From Candidatus Omnitrophota bacterium (GTDB lineage Bacteria > Omnitrophota > Gorgyraeia > Gygaellales > Profunditerraquicolaceae): 64,000 nt of DNA. Made by a program: the position numbers and the translations under genes. Every line of letters begins with the position of its first letter. Position 1 is the stretch's first letter. Below, in pieces: positions 1,111 to 52,892 of the stretch. The notes beneath the pieces are model-generated. The model worked only from the letters and a program-made list of their open reading frames with translations. It was not told the DNA's origin and did no database searches. Where the stretch lies: positions 13,326 through 77,325 of the forward strand of contig JAPLLX010000002.1 of assembly GCA_026387335.1 (NCBI GenBank), in the 5' to 3' direction.

Positions 1111-1983
1111 ATGCCTATCTGTCAAGCAAAAAGGGGTATGAGATACGAGCAAAATAGAACTCGTCATTACGAGGAGCGTTACATTTCGTCATTGCTTTAC
1201 TCACTACGCTCGTTCGCAATGACTGGTTTTCTCATTTCACTGGCTGCTTTAGCCCAAGCTGAGGTAACTGCTTCTTATTGGCAGACCAGCAAATCCCAGC
1301 ATTTTATAATTTATTATCAGGAAGCCCCCGCCGGATTTGTTGACGAGCTTATTAATAAAGCCGAAAACTATTATAACGGCATTGTTGATGAATTAGGCTA
1401 CCGGAGGATGGATTTCTGGAGCTGGGATAACCGCGCCAAAATCTATCTTTATAAAAATGCCGATGATTTTCATACCGATACCCAGCGTTCTGCCTGGGCA
1501 GGAGCGGTAGTCTCGGTGCGTAACCGAATAATGAAAACTTTTGTCGGGCAAGAACATTTTTTTGACTCATTGCTACCACATGAGATGACGCACATTATAT
1601 TCCGGGAGTTTATCGGAGTAAATACTCCGTTGCCTCTTTGGATTGACGAAGGTGTAGCCAGTTCTCAAGAGAAAAGTAACCTTTACGCGCGTATGCAGAT
1701 AGCTAAGGACCTGGTCGCCAAAAACCAGTATATTAAACTGGATAAGTTTTCGGAAATAAGCAAGCCCGGAGAGGATACTGTCGCGCCGGATATTTTTTAT
1801 TCAGAGGCGGCGTCCCTGATTGTTTTCCTTATCCGGGACAAAGGAAGAGAACGCTTCCTGGATTTTAGCCGCTCCTTACGCGATGGGATAGATTGGAAGA
1901 GCGCCTTATTAAAGACTTATAATTTTTTGACTCTGGAAGAATTGGAGAAGGAGTGGAAAAATTATATGCTAAAAAATAAATAG
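1111..1983 (+). CDS. Secreted MA-clan zinc metallopeptidase-like protein (HExxH...E)
   Basis: HEMTH (HExxH) followed by IDEGVA (a downstream Glu), the gluzincin pattern. A signal-peptide-like segment MTGFLISLAALAQA suggests the true start may be the ATG at 1219 (or 1138). The stop TAG is the first triplet of REPIN copy 1. Confidence 0.45.
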   Translation: MPICQAKRGMRYEQNRTRHYEERYISSLLYSLRSFAMTGFLISLAALAQAEVTASYWQTSKSQHFIIYYQEAPAGFVDELINKAENYYNGIVDELGYRRMDFWSWDNRAKIYLYKNADDFHTDTQRSAWAGAVVSVRNRIMKTFVGQEHFFDSLLPHEMTHIIFREFIGVNTPLPLWIDEGVASSQEKSNLYARMQIAKDLVAKNQYIKLDKFSEISKPGEDTVAPDIFYSEAASLIVFLIRDKGRERFLDFSRSLRDGIDWKSALLKTYNFLTLEELEKEWKNYMLKNK

Positions 1984-3757: not shown

Positions 3758-4003
3758 ATGCGCCTGGCGATACTTGATCCTAAAAAGGCAATTTGGCAGG
3801 GGATGGCCAAGAAGGTGACTTTGCCGGCGGCCGACGGAGAAATGTGCGTACTGGATTTTCATCAGCCTTTTGTAGTCAGGCTGGCCAAAGGCAAGATAAC
3901 TTTTTCCGGTGAGAACCTTCCGGCTCGGCAGCCGGGTATTCCTATAAAAGACGGTATCGCTTTTATGCGCTCAAATTCTTTGACTGTTTTCGCCCAGACT
4001 TAA
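3758..4003 (+). CDS. atpC: F-type ATP synthase epsilon subunit (N-terminal beta-sandwich only; C-terminal helical hairpin absent)
   Basis: LAILDPKKAIWQGMAKKVTLPAADGEMCVLDFHQPFVVRLAKGKITF matches the epsilon N-domain pattern (V..V..P...GE.GIL..H.P....L..G.I). 81 aa. Confidence 0.5.
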   Translation: MRLAILDPKKAIWQGMAKKVTLPAADGEMCVLDFHQPFVVRLAKGKITFSGENLPARQPGIPIKDGIAFMRSNSLTVFAQT

Positions 4004-4010
4004 ATAATAT

Positions 4011-4223
4011 ATGTCCACATTCGCCTTAATTCTAGTTATGATTTTAAGCACTGCCGGCCCGGCCGCGGTCATTGCCCTGGTGGGTTTTTCCGCGGTCAAG
4101 TCCATAGCGCGTAATCCTTCCGCCTCCCCCAAAATATTCATAGTCATGATCTTGGCTTTTATTTTTTCAGAAGCGATCGCGATTTTGGCGCTTCTGATTT
4201 TATATAATCTTTTTACCAAGTAG
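4011..4223 (+). CDS. atpE: F-type ATP synthase c subunit (proteolipid)
   Basis: Two-helix hairpin, 70 aa, polar loop ARNPSAS, and a carboxylate in helix 2 (FSEAIAILAL). Confidence 0.6.
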   Translation: MSTFALILVMILSTAGPAAVIALVGFSAVKSIARNPSASPKIFIVMILAFIFSEAIAILALLILYNLFTK

Positions 4224-4230
4224 AGGAATA

Positions 4231-4294
4231 AATAGGGACAGCGACCATTTTTCCCTGGTCGCCTAGACAGAAAAATGGTCGCTGTCCCTATTTA
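4231..4294. repeat. REPIN copy 3
   Basis: AATAGGGACAGCGACCATTTTTCCCTGGTCGCCTAGACAGAAAAATGGTCGCTGTCCCTATTTA. Sits between atpE and the b-delta gene inside the ATP synthase operon. Confidence 0.9.
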
Positions 4295-4302
4295 AAAACA
4301 CT

Positions 4303-5016
4303 ATGCTCGTCCAGCTTTTAGCCATCCAGATAGTCACTTTCATAGCCATTATATTTTTATTGCGTTTTCTTTTCTCGCGCCATCTTAAGGTCGCCTTGGA
4401 TAGGCTGAATACCTTGCATGAAGAAAACCTGGCCAAAGAAGAAGAGCTGAATGAGGAGTTGAAAAGGGCCAAAGAAGAGAGTCAGGCGGAAATAGAAAAA
4501 GGCAAAGAAGAGGCCGAGGTCATTATTGAAGACTCTAAAAAAGAAGCCACGCGGATACGCTTAACCCTTGAAGAAGAGGCCAAGGCCCAAGCGGCCAAGA
4601 TCGTCGCTATGGGTAAAGTTGATGCCGAGAAAATGAAGGAGAGTGTGTCCAGGGATATACAAGGCCAGAGCGTGGAATTGGCCTCCAGAATGATCTCCGA
4701 GCTGCTTATTGAAGCGGATAAAGTTGCCCTGCAATACCAGTTTGCCAATGAGATAATCGCAGAGATTGCCCGCCTGCCCAAAGAGCAGTTTAACGTCCAG
4801 GCCAAAGACATAAAAGTCACCTCCAGTTATCCTTTGCTGGACAGGCAAAGAGACGAGTTACAAAAGGTTTTAGGCGAAAAATTAGAGGGGGCCTTTAAGA
4901 TCAAAGAGCAGATAGACCCCAAGCTTATCGGAGGGCTCATCCTGGATATAGGCGGTATGGTTATTGACGGGACCTTAAAGAACAAGCTGCAAAGAATCAT
5001 TCCTTACCTTAAATGA
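4303..5016 (+). CDS. atpFH: ATP synthase b-delta fusion protein
   Basis: N-terminal TM helix plus a long charged coiled coil (b-like). The C-terminus IDPKLIGGLILDIGGMVIDGTLKNKLQRI matches the conserved delta/OSCP C-terminal motif (IDPSLIGG..I.IGD.VIDGS....L). 237 aa. Confidence 0.55.
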   Translation: MLVQLLAIQIVTFIAIIFLLRFLFSRHLKVALDRLNTLHEENLAKEEELNEELKRAKEESQAEIEKGKEEAEVIIEDSKKEATRIRLTLEEEAKAQAAKIVAMGKVDAEKMKESVSRDIQGQSVELASRMISELLIEADKVALQYQFANEIIAEIARLPKEQFNVQAKDIKVTSSYPLLDRQRDELQKVLGEKLEGAFKIKEQIDPKLIGGLILDIGGMVIDGTLKNKLQRIIPYLK

Positions 5017-5030
5017 CACAAAAATAAAAT

Positions 5031-6491
5031 ATGAAAGTTGGCGCGTTAGACATAAGGGAAGTCGGCAGAATAGAAGAGCTTAAGCAGGGGATTGTGAAGA
5101 TCAGCGGCCTGCCGAATTGTTCTTACGGGGAAGTCATTGAGCTGGAAAACGGGCTCAAGGGGATGATCATTGAATTTAACCCGGAATACGCCTTTGGCGT
5201 TGTTTTCGGCGATGAGCGTAAAATCAAAGTCGGTGATACAGTCTCCAGCCGCGGCGGCCTGCTGAATGTCCCGGTGGGAGACGGGTTTATCGGCCGGGTG
5301 GTGAATTCTCTGGCCCAACCTATTGACGGAAAAGGCAAGATCGAGGGATCCGAATTCCATCCGGTTTTTCACGAAGCAGCCGGGGTCATGGAGAGGGAGC
5401 CCATAGACCAAACCTTGCACACCGGAATAAAAATAATTGATATGCTCGTCCCTTTAGGCAAGGGCCAGCGCGAACTTATCGTCGGAGACCGTCAGATAGG
5501 CAAGACCTCCATCGGCCTGGATACGATAATCAACCAGAAAGGCAAAAACGTAATTTGCATATATTGCTGGATAGGCGGAAGTTCCGCCGCCTTTAATAAA
5601 ATAATTCAAACTCTGCGCCAGCACGGGGCAATGGATTATGTCTTAGGAGTTTGCGCTTCGGCCGGCTCAGCCACATCTGAACAATATATCTGCCCTTACA
5701 CCGCCGCCGCGCTGGGCGAATATTTTATGAATAGCGGCAGGGATGTTTTGGTCATATTTGATGACCTGACCAAACACAGCTGGGTCTACCGGCAGATGTC
5801 CCTGCTTCTTGAACGCGCTCCGGGAAGAGAGGCCTATCCCGGCGATATATTCTTCCTGCATTCGCAACTTATGGAACGGGCCGGAAGGCTAAAAAAAGAA
5901 TTTGGCGGCGGCTCAATGACCTTTCTGCCTTTTGCCGAGACGCTGCAGGGGGATATTACCGGTTATATCTGTTCCAATATAGTCTCCATGACCGACGGGC
6001 AGATTTACTTAAATACGGGTTTGTTCCAGGAAGGTTTTAAGCCGGCCATAGACCTGGAGCTCTCGGTTTCGCGTATTGGAAGCAAGGTGCAGTGCCCGGC
6101 AATCCGGGCTTTAAGCGCGGGCCTGCGTTATGAATATGTGCGTTTCCGTTCACTCTTGCGGCTTACGCGTTTAAGAACCAAGCTTAGCCCGGAAGCAGCC
6201 GAACAATTGCAGCGGGGCAAGGCCCTGTATGAACTTTTAATCCAGGAGAATAACTCGCCTATTTCTCAGGCCGAAGAGATCGCTGTTTTTTACGCTTTTC
6301 ACCAAAAGATACTGGAGGCCATAGGAATAGAGCAGGTCAGGTATTTTAAAAATAATTTTTTCTCTTATCTATCCAGCCATAACGGCGAACTCGTTGACCA
6401 GCTTAATACAAGAGGGGAACTGAGCGAAGATGTGAAGATGCAGCTGGATAAGGCGATAAAAGAATTTTTCCGCAGCTCTAAGATAGGATAG
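5031..6491 (+). CDS. atpA: ATP synthase alpha subunit (divergent)
   Basis: GRVVNSLAQPIDGKG; Walker A GDRQIGKTS; overall F1-alpha architecture. The nucleotide-binding region is unusually Cys-rich (CIYCWIGGSS). Confidence 0.85.
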   Translation: MKVGALDIREVGRIEELKQGIVKISGLPNCSYGEVIELENGLKGMIIEFNPEYAFGVVFGDERKIKVGDTVSSRGGLLNVPVGDGFIGRVVNSLAQPIDGKGKIEGSEFHPVFHEAAGVMEREPIDQTLHTGIKIIDMLVPLGKGQRELIVGDRQIGKTSIGLDTIINQKGKNVICIYCWIGGSSAAFNKIIQTLRQHGAMDYVLGVCASAGSATSEQYICPYTAAALGEYFMNSGRDVLVIFDDLTKHSWVYRQMSLLLERAPGREAYPGDIFFLHSQLMERAGRLKKEFGGGSMTFLPFAETLQGDITGYICSNIVSMTDGQIYLNTGLFQEGFKPAIDLELSVSRIGSKVQCPAIRALSAGLRYEYVRFRSLLRLTRLRTKLSPEAAEQLQRGKALYELLIQENNSPISQAEEIAVFYAFHQKILEAIGIEQVRYFKNNFFSYLSSHNGELVDQLNTRGELSEDVKMQLDKAIKEFFRSSKIG

Positions 6492-6493
6492 AA

Positions 6494-6875
6494 GATTGCG
6501 TCATTGCGAACCCCGCCTATGGCGGGGTGAAGCAATCTCTGAATATGAGTAATAAAGCAGGTTTTGTTTATCTTATGACAAACAAAATGAATACGGTAAT
6601 TTATACAGGAGTTACAAGCGACCTTCAAAAAAGAATTTATGAACATAAAGAAAAATTAGTTGATGGTTTTACTAAGAAATATAATGTTAATAGATTAGTT
6701 TATTACGAGATATTTGATGGTATAGAAGATGCAATCACAAGGGAAAAACAAATTAAAGCGGGTTCGCGGAAGAAGAAGTTAGATTTAATTAGTTCTATTA
6801 ACCCTGATTTCAAAGACCTTTATTATGAATTATGAGATTGCTTCGGCTGCCTGCAGCAGCCTCGCAATGACGCAA
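6494..6875. mobile_element. Small GIY-YIG cassette bounded by about 45-bp terminal inverted repeats, inserted between atpA and atpG
   Basis: Left end GATTGCGTCATTGCGAACCCCGCCTATGGCGGGGTGAAGCAATCTC (6494-6539). Right end GAGATTGCTTCGGCTGCCTGCAGCAGCCTCGCAATGACGCAA (6834-6875). The TTGCGTCATTGCGA and GAAGCAATCTC blocks are reverse-complementary between the two ends, and each end also carries its own internal palindrome. The interior is AT-rich. Confidence 0.7.
6545..6835 (+). CDS. GIY-YIG domain nuclease (small standalone, YhbQ/UPF0213-like)
   Basis: GFVYLMTN...VIYTGVTSDLQKRIYEH gives the GIY/YIG beta-hairpins plus a conserved Arg and Glu. The ORF track starts at 6527, inside the left TIR; the ATG at 6545 is more plausible. 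Confidence 0.7.
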   Translation: MSNKAGFVYLMTNKMNTVIYTGVTSDLQKRIYEHKEKLVDGFTKKYNVNRLVYYEIFDGIEDAITREKQIKAGSRKKKLDLISSINPDFKDLYYEL

Positions 6876-6886
6876 AGGATAAATAA

Positions 6887-10733
<3,847 letters not shown>

Positions 10734-10735
<2 letters not shown>

Positions 10736-21554: not shown

Positions 21555-22370
21555 GTGAATAAAAGAGTCTGGATAACCGGCGGTATAATATTGCTAGTCT
21601 TAATTTTGTTAGTGTCATTTTCCTTCAAAAAAGGCAGTTCTTCTTTTCCCGGACAAAAGCCAGCCGGGCCAACCTCCCAGGCCCTTTTAAGCCAAGCCAA
21701 GGCTTTACAGGCTAAGAGTGACCTGCTGGGAGCAAAAGCTGCCTACCAGAAGCTGGTAAATGATTTTCCCAATTCCGGCGAGGTAATGAATTGGCAGAAT
21801 AAGATAGAAGATATAAATATTAAACTTTTGTTCTCGCCCGCGCTGACTCCTAAGAGCGCGCTTTATGAGATAAAGCCGGGAGACACGCTTACCAAGATCG
21901 CCCGGGAATTTAAAACTACTCCGGATTTAATAAAAAAGAGCAATAATCTAAGCGATGACCGGATCAACCCGGGCAGGAAAATCAAAGTCTGGGTAGCGCC
22001 TTTTAGTATCCTCGTAGACAAGTCTCAGAATATCCTGATCCTTAAGAGCGACGAGGAGATAATCAAGACTTATATCGTGTCAACGGGGAAGAATAATTCT
22101 ACTCCTGTAGGAAATTTCAAAATTACCTCTAAATTAATCAATCCCACCTGGTTTAAGGCCGGAGCGGTTGTACCGGCAGGCACCCCGGAAAATATATTGG
22201 GCACGCGTTGGATGGGCATAGATAGACCCAGTTACGGAATACACGGCACCACTGAGCCCCAAAGCTTAGGCAAGCAGGTCACGCAAGGTTGTGTGCGTAT
22301 GTCTAATCCGGAAGTGGAAGAACTCTATACAATAGTCCCTGTCGGCACAGAAGTAGTTATCGTTGACTAA
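21555..22370 (+). CDS. LysM-domain L,D-transpeptidase (YkuD/ErfK family)
   Basis: LysM: YEIKPGDTLTKIAREFKTTPDLIKKSNNL. YkuD catalytic region: HGT...GKQVTQGCVRMSN (His/Cys/Arg). Confidence 0.75.
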   Translation: MNKRVWITGGIILLVLILLVSFSFKKGSSSFPGQKPAGPTSQALLSQAKALQAKSDLLGAKAAYQKLVNDFPNSGEVMNWQNKIEDINIKLLFSPALTPKSALYEIKPGDTLTKIAREFKTTPDLIKKSNNLSDDRINPGRKIKVWVAPFSILVDKSQNILILKSDEEIIKTYIVSTGKNNSTPVGNFKITSKLINPTWFKAGAVVPAGTPENILGTRWMGIDRPSYGIHGTTEPQSLGKQVTQGCVRMSNPEVEELYTIVPVGTEVVIVD

Positions 22371-22434
22371 ACAATCCTAAATGAGATCGCCACGCCCGCC
22401 ACTTAATTGATAGCGGGCTCGCGATGACAAGGAA

Positions 22435-23382
22435 ATGGCAGGATTAGATTTTGAAAAACCTATTGCTGAATTAGAAAAGAAAATCCAGGAATTAAGGCAT
22501 TTTGTCTCGGATAAAAAGATAGACCTTTCTTCCGAAGTAAAACGCCTGGAAGATAAGCTGGAGCATCTTAAGAAAGATACCTACACTAATCTTTCCGCCT
22601 GGCAGAGGGTGCAGCTTGCCCGCCATCCGCAAAGGCCCTATACTTTAGATTATATCAATCTGTTTATAACGGATTTTATAGAAATACACGGAGACAGGCA
22701 CTTTGCCGATGATAAAGCCATTGTCTGCGGCTTAGGCAAATTGGATAAACACAAAATTGCGGTTATCGGGCATCAAAAGGGCAGGGACACTAAGGAGAAT
22801 CTCCAGCGTAATTTCGGCTGCGCCCATCCGGAAGGATACCGTAAGGCGCTTAGAGTTATGCAGTTGGCGGAAGAATTCAATTTACCCGTGGTGATTTTCA
22901 TTGATACTCCCGGAGCCTATCCGGGCATAGGAGCGGAAGAGCGCGGGCAATCCCAGGCCATCGCGTTTAACTTGAGGGAGATGGCCTCTTTGGCTACGCC
23001 AATACTCTCTATAGTCATAGGAGAAGGCGGCTCAGGCGGAGCTTTAGGGGTGGGAGTAGCTGACCGGGTCTGTATATTAGAAAATTCATATTATTCCGTT
23101 ATATCTCCCGAAGGTTGCGCGGCAATATTATGGAAGGATGGTTCAAAGGCGCCTCAGGCAGCCGAAGTCTTAAAACTGACCGGCGCTGATTTGCTGGCCC
23201 TTAAGATTATTGATGAAGTGATCCCGGAGCCGTTAGGCGGCGCTCACCGGGATGTACAGAAAACAGCCCAGAATTTAAAAGAGGTAATAGTGAGAAACCT
23301 CAAAGAATTAAAAGCAATAGATAAAGAAGAACTCTTAAAATTAAGGTATAAGAAATTCCGCAGTATGGGTGTTGTGGCATGA
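22435..23382 (+). CDS. accA: Acetyl-CoA carboxylase carboxyltransferase alpha subunit
   Basis: Canonical AccA N-terminus [33 protein letters not shown] and a crotonase fold pattern throughout. Confidence 0.9.
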
Positions 23383-52666: not shown

Positions 52667-52749
52667 TGCCGGGAGAGGGAGTTGAACCCACATGAGCTTG
52701 CGCTCAACAGCTTTTGAGGCTGCCGCGTATGCCATTTCGCCATCCCGGC
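52667..52749 (-). tRNA. tRNA-Leu (anticodon CAA), class II with long variable arm
   Basis: Reverse complement folds as GCCGGGA / 3-bp D stem / anticodon stem GCAGC-loop CTCAAAA-GCTGT / variable stem-loop TGAGC-GCAA-GCTCA / T arm GTGGG-TTCAACT-CCCTC (one U-U mismatch) / TCCCGGC-A. No encoded CCA. Confidence 0.65.
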
Positions 52750-52816: not shown

Positions 52817-52892
52817 GGGGCTGTAGCTCAGCTGGGAGAGCACTTGCATGGCATGCAAGGGGTCAGGAGTTCAATCCTCCTCAGCTCCACCA
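52817..52892 (+). tRNA. tRNA-Ala (anticodon GGC) with G3:U70 identity pair and encoded CCA
   Basis: GGGGCTG-TA-GCTC-AGCTGGGA-GAGC-A-CTTGC-ATGGCAT-GCAAG-GGGTC-AGGAG-TTCAATC-CTCCT-CAGCTCC-ACCA; the anticodon-loop centre is GGC. Confidence 0.85.

Follow-up and report, generated by a model that had tools for sequence, protein, structure and literature searches.

A GIY-YIG nuclease gene bracketed by its own hairpin repeats, a probable Ssn/SRM cassette, at the atpA-atpG junction of an Omnitrophota bacterium

The closest described counterpart of the element studied here is SsnA of Neisseria meningitidis, a 94-amino acid (aa) single-domain GIY-YIG protein (CDD cd10448), together with its binding site, the Neisseria transformation sequence (NTS; CGTCATTCCCGCGMAVGCGGGAATCYRG) (Chenal et al. 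2025, Nat Commun 16:2388, PMC11893778). SsnA binds the NTS hairpin only as single-stranded DNA (ssDNA) and cuts it a few nucleotides (nt) upstream; it is inactive on double-stranded DNA (dsDNA), on RNA and on the opposite strand (PMC11893778). Cutting depends most on the three nt before the palindrome and binding on the C after it, and the substitutions Y6A, Y17A and E64A abolish cleavage (PMC11893778). An Ssn-related motif (SRM) lies nearby in 71% of Ssn homologues and on either side in 42%; the authors called the NTS-ssnA-NTS layout 'identical to' that of an insertion sequence and likened it to REP/RAYT (PMC11893778). We analyzed a 64,000-nt (64-kb) stretch of DNA from a Candidatus Omnitrophota bacterium, hereafter the window, in which a short segment between atpA and atpG carries a GIY-YIG nuclease gene (ssn) bracketed by its own hairpin repeats. 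Judging from its sequence, this segment is most probably an Ssn/SRM cassette, a confidence that covers the identification of the cassette and not any mobility mechanism. The Ssn family was described in 2025.

NTS is also the Neisseria member of a wider class of CGTC-tagged repeats, and it was linked to a protein by Chenal et al. 2025 (PMC11893778). CGTC-tagged REPs occur in several phyla, including the Neisseria dRS3 and Rickettsia RPE-4/6 repeats; their tag, CGTC or TGTC, is unpaired, their stem opens with A-T and T-A pairs, and the tail is short; no transposase gene was found in association with them (Di Nocera et al. 2013, BMC Genomics 14:522, PMC3733652).

The ssn product was assessed against these systems. 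Pfam matched residues 6-78 to GIY-YIG (PF01541, E 2e-17); no other family matched, and there was no added DNA-binding domain. The initial annotation of the window had pointed to an AT-rich GIY-YIG segment between atpA and atpG, which agrees with this match and with the GC content of the open reading frame (ORF), 0.278 compared with 0.496 for atpA and 0.479 for atpG. The 102-aa protein that it proposed is to be shortened to 96 aa, beginning at the ATG at 6545, where the public database entry (P0001) and all homologues begin; the GTG at 6527 used in the 102-aa reading falls within the left repeat. The protein is identical to P0001, which is annotated as 'GIY-YIG nuclease family protein, Candidatus Omnitrophica'. 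Aligned with a 94-aa ORF of N. gonorrhoeae (L089:625-909), it showed 47% identity over 89 aa without gaps (E 4e-33), and its Y9, Y20 and E67 align with Y6, Y17 and E64 of that ORF. We took the gonococcal ORF as the SsnA ortholog by its published length, by Y6/Y17/E64 and by the flanking NTS repeats. It was obtained from PLSDB, where the window protein matches one place in each of two N. gonorrhoeae records. These two records (NZ_CP119140.1 and NZ_CP119142.1) are labelled as plasmids; at 2.17 Mb, they resemble whole chromosomes, and the SsnA-like ORF is unannotated in them. In an 11-sequence alignment covering several phyla, Y9, Y20, R30, H34, E67 and N86 were invariant, and Y9, Y20, R30 and E67 are the predicted catalytic residues. 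The only solved relative was UPF0213 BH0048 (1zg2), and the weakness of this match (E 1e-4) fits a different GIY-YIG subfamily. We provisionally assign the protein to the Ssn family and regard its repeat as a putative SRM variant that lies outside the published search pattern.

The two ends of the cassette pair with each other in two blocks. The repeat scan showed that 6496-6509 (TTGCGTCATTGCGA) is complementary to 6862-6875 at 14/14 positions and that 6529-6539 (GAAGCAATCTC) is complementary to 6834-6844 at 11/11 positions. Between the two blocks lie inner hairpins that are unlike at the two ends: the left one reads ACCCCGCC-tat-GGCGGGGT, the right one GGCTGC-ctgca-GCAGCC. The segment had been described as having 45-bp terminal inverted repeats (TIRs), each with a further local palindrome. 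The ends are indeed reverse-complementary and the palindromes are the two different inner hairpins; however, the arms measure 44 and 42 nt, and their conservation is split into 14 + 11 nt and is not continuous. Computed folding of the left unit as ssDNA gave -16 kcal/mol (z -5.5), and the right unit folded into the canonical two-stem hairpin. The tail of the right unit is overlapped by the ssn stop codon TGA (6833-6835). The GIY-YIG gene is the only ORF of the cassette, and the cassette has one copy in the window.

We then characterized the repeat unit around homologous genes. The scan for relatives used one genome per species and confirmed 542 relatives; the repeat work was performed on the best 80 of these 542, which share 58-76% identity with the window protein. 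The 80 come from Omnitrophota, Ignavibacteria, Cyanobacteria, Daviesbacteria, Levyibacteriota, Saccharibacteria (Patescibacteria-type), Chloroflexota, Clostridia, Bacteroidota and Desulfobacterota, in all of which homologues with a matching flank unit were found, and from Planctomycetota, Melioribacter, and Alpha- and Gammaproteobacteria. The consensus unit reads (C/T)GTC-ATTGC-GA-(G...C hairpin, variable in sequence and length)-GAA-GCAAT-CTC(A); i.e., a 5-bp outer stem and a GA/GAA internal loop are followed by a second stem of variable sequence, and the spacing between the conserved blocks CATTGCGA and GAAGCAAT ranges from 3 to 43 nt. We aligned 83 distinct units and built a covariance model from the alignment. 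G4, T5 and C6 were conserved at 90% or more, the stem begins AT...AT and the tail is CTC. In this alignment, 86.7% of cells were paired, compared with 22-54% when the partners were slid; double changes were seen in 80 cells, compared with 28 +/- 4 after shuffling. Covariation links the G/A that follows GCGA to the C/T preceding GAAGC, and the outer stem also occurs in the compensated forms ATTAC/GTAAT, ACTGC/GCAGT and ATCGC/GCGAT. This strong covariation supports a two-stem hairpin as the form of the unit. The model scored the left unit of the window at 45.0 bits (E 6e-8) and the right unit at 44.3 bits (E 9e-8).

The unit is tied to the gene. Flanks were long enough at 75 loci; in 47 of these, the unit closest to ssn on its upstream side (within 100 nt) was in the plus orientation, the nearest downstream unit was in the minus orientation in 34, and both held in 30. 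Unit density was 3.52 per kb within 300 nt of ssn and 0.12 elsewhere in the loci, a difference of approximately 30-fold. Arrangements other than plus/minus were common around ssn genes, and units in other genomes also occurred as inverted pairs and arrays. As suggested by the initial annotation, we searched for further copies of the repeat, and these were found at two more places in the window as well as around homologues in many phyla. That is, the repeats are not confined to the atpA-atpG locus.

Table 1. Features of the cassette, its setting and related copies. Positions are those of the window unless a locus is given.
Feature	Position	Strand	Basis or detail
atpA (ATP synthase alpha)	5031-6491		Pfam
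Left AGGATA direct repeat	6485-6490	+	Comparison with the empty L083 junction; overlaps the atpA stop codon TAG (6489-6491)
Left hairpin repeat (SRM-type unit), head outward	6496-6542	+	Inverted-repeat scan; covariance model match 6497-6542
Left unit, tag C-GTC	6499-6502		
Left unit, outer stem	6503-6507 and 6532-6536		ATTGC pairs with GCAAT
Left unit, inner variable hairpin	6510-6528		Set off by the internal loop GA / GAA
Left unit, tail CTC	6537-6539		
ssn gene, single-domain GIY-YIG, 96 aa	6545-6835, stop codon included	+	Pfam, homology
Right hairpin repeat, inverted, head outward	6831-6875	-	Covariance model match 6831-6874 (-); inverted-repeat scan
Right unit, inner hairpin	6845-6861		
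Right AGGATA direct repeat	6876-6881	+	Comparison with the empty L083 junction
atpG (ATP synthase gamma)	6887-7729		Pfam
Solo unit	1185-1226	-	Covariance model 32.1 bits, E 5e-5
Solo unit, outer stem ATCGC/GCGAT, 31-nt inner hairpin	22380-22431	-	Covariance model 20.1 bits, E 0.025
Melioribacter cassettes	L058:2909-3381; L059:2909-3381; L061:2909-3427		

The cassette shares its main traits with the Ssn/NTS system: a single-domain GIY-YIG protein of approximately 95 aa with the catalytic residues kept, a gene with an oriented hairpin repeat on either side, each built of a 5' (C/T)GTC-AT head, a palindromic stem and an immediately following C, solo repeats in intergenic gaps, and a distribution over many phyla. 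In the window, the unit has a (C)GTCAT head, a hairpin and AATC after the stem, as in NTS. The view that such a bounded GIY-YIG gene is not a described class no longer holds, as the layout of a gene with flanking hairpins is that of the published Ssn/SRM system (PMC11893778). However, the window unit has an interrupted ATTGC/GCAAT stem with an inserted hairpin, whereas NTS has a continuous ATTCCCGCG stem; the tags point outward in the window and toward the gene in N. gonorrhoeae (nearest repeats); and natural transformation is not known for the host, an uncultured Omnitrophota bacterium. The kind of system is known, and what we would add is a repeat variant missed by the published pattern, gain and loss at one junction, and the Melioribacter copies. 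The missed variant flanks ssn in many phyla in the 80-locus sample, which matters for counting such systems and for choosing enzyme-site pairs as ssDNA tools.

With CGTC-REPs, the window unit shares the tag, the A-T/T-A start of the stem and a short unpaired tail, and both occur frequently as inverted dimers and arrays in many phyla. CGTC-REPs have a continuous stem of 8-9 bp, a loop of 4-5 nt and a CCA-like tail, whereas the window unit has an interrupted stem, a CTC(A) tail and a tie to a specific nuclease gene. A further parallel is provided by the REP/REPIN-RAYT systems, reportedly treated by Nunvar et al. in 2010 and by Bertels and Rainey in 2011. In these as here, a small nuclease gene lies between inverted hairpin repeats that are also scattered singly, in pairs and in arrays, and hairpins are recognized in ssDNA in both. 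However, RAYT is an HUH/Y1 tyrosine transposase that forms covalent intermediates and can rejoin DNA, whereas Ssn is a hydrolytic GIY-YIG enzyme; in addition, REP-RAYT is mostly inherited vertically, whereas ssn homologues share 58-76% identity across phyla.

Next, we compared the atpA-atpG junction in eight related Omnitrophota contigs, which were retrieved via gamma-subunit homologues; identities to the window refer to the AtpA C-terminus and AtpG. The junction was empty in four of them, as the initial annotation had proposed to check: the sister contig L086 (93%; 3-nt gap, GGTTAAATTATG), L083 (89%; GGATAAATAAATG, empty-junction sequence AAGATAGGATAAATAAATG), L088 (87%) and L084 (80%). Meanwhile, L081 (88%) holds the same hairpin-ssn-hairpin cassette, L085 (72%) holds ssn with arrays of units, L087 (73%) holds one solo unit, and L082 (89%) holds two unrelated hairpins, each starting with GTAG. 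In the insert-free relatives, atpA and atpG lie 3-5 nt apart; the gap of about 12 bp that had been expected without the segment does not fit, since removing 6496-6875 leaves 15 nt. Compared with the empty L083 junction, the window reads AAGATAGGATA[G AAGATTGC GTC...GAC GCAA AGGATA]AATAAATG, in which AGGATA is duplicated. The right AGGATA copy restores the AGGA ribosome-binding sequence for atpG, a Shine-Dalgarno-like sequence 6-9 nt before its ATG (6887). On a neighbor-joining tree, the occupied and empty states were interleaved, indicating that the cassette was gained more than once or was precisely lost several times. These comparisons support the reading of the cassette as an insertion that comes and goes at this site. 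The locus offers a natural experiment in a core ATP synthase operon: close relatives carry empty, solo-repeat or occupied alleles.

The same comparison bears on whether ssn could be an ancestral resident of the atp operon instead of an insertion. L081 and L085 carry ssn at the same place, as a resident gene would predict. However, only 3-5 nt separate atpA from atpG in the sister and in three more relatives, so that the gene is not at the locus in all relatives; the GC content of 0.28 differs from the 0.48-0.50 of the neighbors; and homologues 58-76% identical to the window protein occur in unrelated phyla and contexts. We regard long-standing residence as scarcely credible.

Two of the relatives showed additional features at or around the junction. 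In L085, one to three units are present in every intergenic gap of the atp operon (760-900, 2417-2581, 2865-2986, 3845-3926 and 5345-5493), and the copies of one unit that flank its ssn are in direct rather than inverted orientation. In L082 (2415-2500), the hairpins are GTAGGGGAGG..CCTCCCCT and GTAGCGGACG..CGTCCGCTAC with TTTAAA loops, and they resemble GTAG-tagged REPs. The presence of GTAG hairpins in this gap indicates that it collects different repeat families.

The initial annotation had read the segment as a mobile or selfish insertion with homing-endonuclease-like logic. Gain and loss at the site, as seen in the empty and occupied relatives, is in keeping with the first part, whereas the second part fares poorly. 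In the homing model, a free-standing endonuclease would cleave the double-stranded empty atpA-atpG junction, and the gene would be copied in by double-strand-break repair. Three lineages with an occupied junction are interspersed with empty ones, as recurrent homing would produce, and NCBIfam gave a sub-threshold match of the N-terminal 33 residues to a group I intron endonuclease (24.5 bits, cut-off 56). The cassette also resembles the GIY-YIG homing endonucleases I-TevI and T4 Seg in its catalytic domain, its AT-rich and selfish-looking gene and its insertion between conserved genes. However, I-TevI and T4 Seg bind DNA through a large domain and cut a specific dsDNA target in alleles that lack the insert, whereas the window protein, at 96 aa, lacks such a domain, and the settings of ssn cassettes number in the dozens, are unrelated and share no target. 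In addition, characterized family members cut only ssDNA, by a hairpin, and do not cleave dsDNA. The junction also takes a solo unit (L087) and unrelated hairpins (L082), which fits a permissive gap better than a homing site. Therefore, homing appears very improbable here.

Near-identical copies were found elsewhere. One Melioribacter metagenome-assembled genome (MAG) carries three copies that are 99-100% identical over 378-473 nt at unrelated loci (Table 1), and these appear, from their sequences, to be independent evidence of recent copying. Beyond the hairpin units, the block common to the three copies extends as far as a further, outer inverted repeat of 18 bp, CAATGYTGTCAGGTTAAG, and another element may be doing the moving in these copies. 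In the right unit of L061, the inner hairpin is wholly swapped for an unrelated one of 59 nt while the rest is identical; possibly, the inner hairpin is a swap or insertion site, as near-identical cassettes differ by its wholesale replacement. Two Kuenenia loci (L056 and L057) were also considered as a pair; they are identical over their full 6.3 kb and hence uninformative on cassette boundaries.

We considered whether the cassette is an autonomous TIR transposon, in which the GIY-YIG protein would act as transposase and move the 380-bp unit by cut-and-paste or copy-paste. The gene between inverted repeats at both ends, the polymorphic junction among relatives, the three Melioribacter copies at unrelated loci in one MAG and the duplicated AGGATA at the atpA-atpG site are what such a transposon would leave. 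To our knowledge, GIY-YIG enzymes hydrolyze DNA, and we know of no strand-transfer chemistry in the superfamily. The sole ORF is the GIY-YIG gene, with no DDE, HUH, serine or tyrosine recombinase; the characterized Ssn proteins are inactive on dsDNA; the Melioribacter block is bounded by the outer TIR and not by the SRMs; unit arrangements other than plus/minus are common; and the AGGATA duplication has no general counterpart among 34 cassettes. The unrelated contexts and the lack of a general target-site duplication argue against classical homing and cut-and-paste TIR transposition alike, and we consider a transposon of this type improbable.

By homology with the Neisseria and Wolbachia enzymes, the 96-aa protein would bind the repeat only as single-stranded, hairpin-folded DNA. 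The enzyme would recognize the GTC tag, the ATTGC/GCAAT stem and the C following the stem, and would cut the repeat-bearing strand a few nt 5' of the GTC tag. Since both tags point outward, the predicted cuts would bracket the whole cassette on opposite strands, just outside it (top strand, approximately 6493-6498; bottom strand, approximately 6873-6878). Here the anatomy, family membership, covariation, linkage and polymorphism were read from the loci themselves, whereas ssDNA binding and cleavage are carried over from the literature. Within this Omnitrophota clade, the cassette was gained or lost at the atpA-atpG junction, where it is tolerated because it lies on the operon strand, has no terminator-like signal or promoter-like excess, and re-creates AGGA for atpG. 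We speculate that Ssn cleavage combined with host repair, replication or recombination moves the cassette and seeds solo repeats. It is likewise a matter of speculation whether the system of this organism is selfish or, like its Neisseria counterpart, a means of restricting incoming ssDNA.

A stronger proposal is that the cassette is an autonomous mobile element, a new kind of insertion sequence: the 96-aa ssDNA nuclease would nick opposite strands just beyond the outward hairpins, and copying would be left to host replication or repair. We put this forward as a tentative idea that is rather unlikely to be correct. If true, an autonomous cassette could enter gaps of 3-5 nt in essential operons and spread between phyla, and the solo hairpins would be its non-autonomous offspring.

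Several points weigh against reading the segment as an Ssn/SRM cassette. The published SRM pattern, HGTCWYN(0-2)YYVSBRHN(0-5)WNVSBRGN(0-2)RNCYNB, had 0 matches in the window; as a control, the pattern recovered a canonical NTS test sequence and the NTS-like repeats by a 65%-identical homologue (L040). The pattern misses the unit because the stem ATTGCGAG...CGAAGCAAT has an internal loop and a long inserted hairpin; i.e., the unit keeps the HGTCWY head, the hairpin and the C after the stem, and its stem sequence and long inner hairpin exceed the pattern. Cognate recognition is therefore inferred from linkage, as the published definition does not cover the unit. Outward-facing tags are not found throughout the family, as the N. 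gonorrhoeae tags nearest the gene face it. The covariance model found four units in the window, the two cassette ends and two solos, which is no sign of a large repeat expansion in this genome. In 34 cassettes, a general target-site duplication was not detected, the mean longest string shared by the flanks being 2.56 nt compared with 2.75 nt in shuffled flanks. The tree allows several precise losses as well as repeated gains at the atp junction. Finally, a hydrolytic GIY-YIG nuclease cannot itself join DNA and so would not account for the insertion step.

The low GC content of the gene was considered as a sign of recent arrival and was rejected. The GC content of ssn was below that of its flanks in 79/79 loci and tracked host GC content (r = 0.79), indicating that low GC is a trait of the family.

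The cassette could also act at the level of RNA, with repeats that process, stabilize or partly terminate the atp transcript and an ORF that is a mere passenger. The cassette lies on the strand of the atp operon, its ends could pair in the transcript, its hairpins are stable, and units fill short intergenic gaps by ribosome-binding sites. Promoter-like sites were not above shuffled frequency, and ssn is probably co-transcribed with the atp genes. However, no terminator-like site was found on the plus strand of the cassette, and no T run follows the hairpins. Rfam gave nothing credible at the repeats, either at the gathering score or at E up to 10; the best scores were 18 bits for isrA (cut-off 51) and 17 bits for a CRISPR repeat model. 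Moreover, units occur in both orientations relative to their neighbors, yet the strand-specific GTC tag and CTC tail are conserved, and the reverse strand would give a different RNA. SsnA fails to bind its site in RNA form, and an RNA role would leave the tight link to a nuclease gene unexplained. We give this explanation very little chance.

Regarding the solo units, the one at 22380-22431 fills a 64-nt gap between an ORF ending at 22370 and an ORF starting at 22435, and an AAGGA ribosome-binding sequence follows it directly, as before atpG. Just upstream of the solo unit at 1185-1226 is a truncated extra head, CGTCATTACGAGGAGCG (1162-1178). The solo unit and the truncated head (1160-1226) both fall within the 5' portion of the ORF 1111-1983, which probably begins further downstream in reality.

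We also searched for other cargo genes inside plus/minus unit pairs, and only ordinary host genes between intergenic units were found; a second, partial ssn was observed in L044 in the same search. At L012 (3323-3439), the left arm alone (GTCTGTCATTGCGGGCC) is present in approximately four tandem copies beside the ssn gene, and duplicated left arms likewise occur in L010, L057 and L067. Such tandem arms could be the scars of slippage or repair on the side where cleavage is predicted.

Phage homologues were not found in INPHARED (tblastn) or IMG/VR, leaving a phage vector for the spread across phyla unsupported. In the literature, we found no later paper on Ssn mobility. Relatives are present on large rhizobial and sphingomonad replicons (PLSDB).

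The ATP synthase operon of the window extends over 3758-10735 and comprises an 81-aa ORF, a 70-aa ORF, a 237-aa ORF, alpha, ssn, gamma and beta. The counterpart of the 237-aa product in relatives matches ATP-synt_B and OSCP, i.e., a b-delta fusion. A 537-aa ORF overlaps and follows the operon, and in relatives the corresponding ORF shows matches to the MshEN and T2SSE ATPase families. Elsewhere in the window, Rfam identified two divergently oriented tRNA genes at 52667-52749 (-) and 52817-52889 (+).

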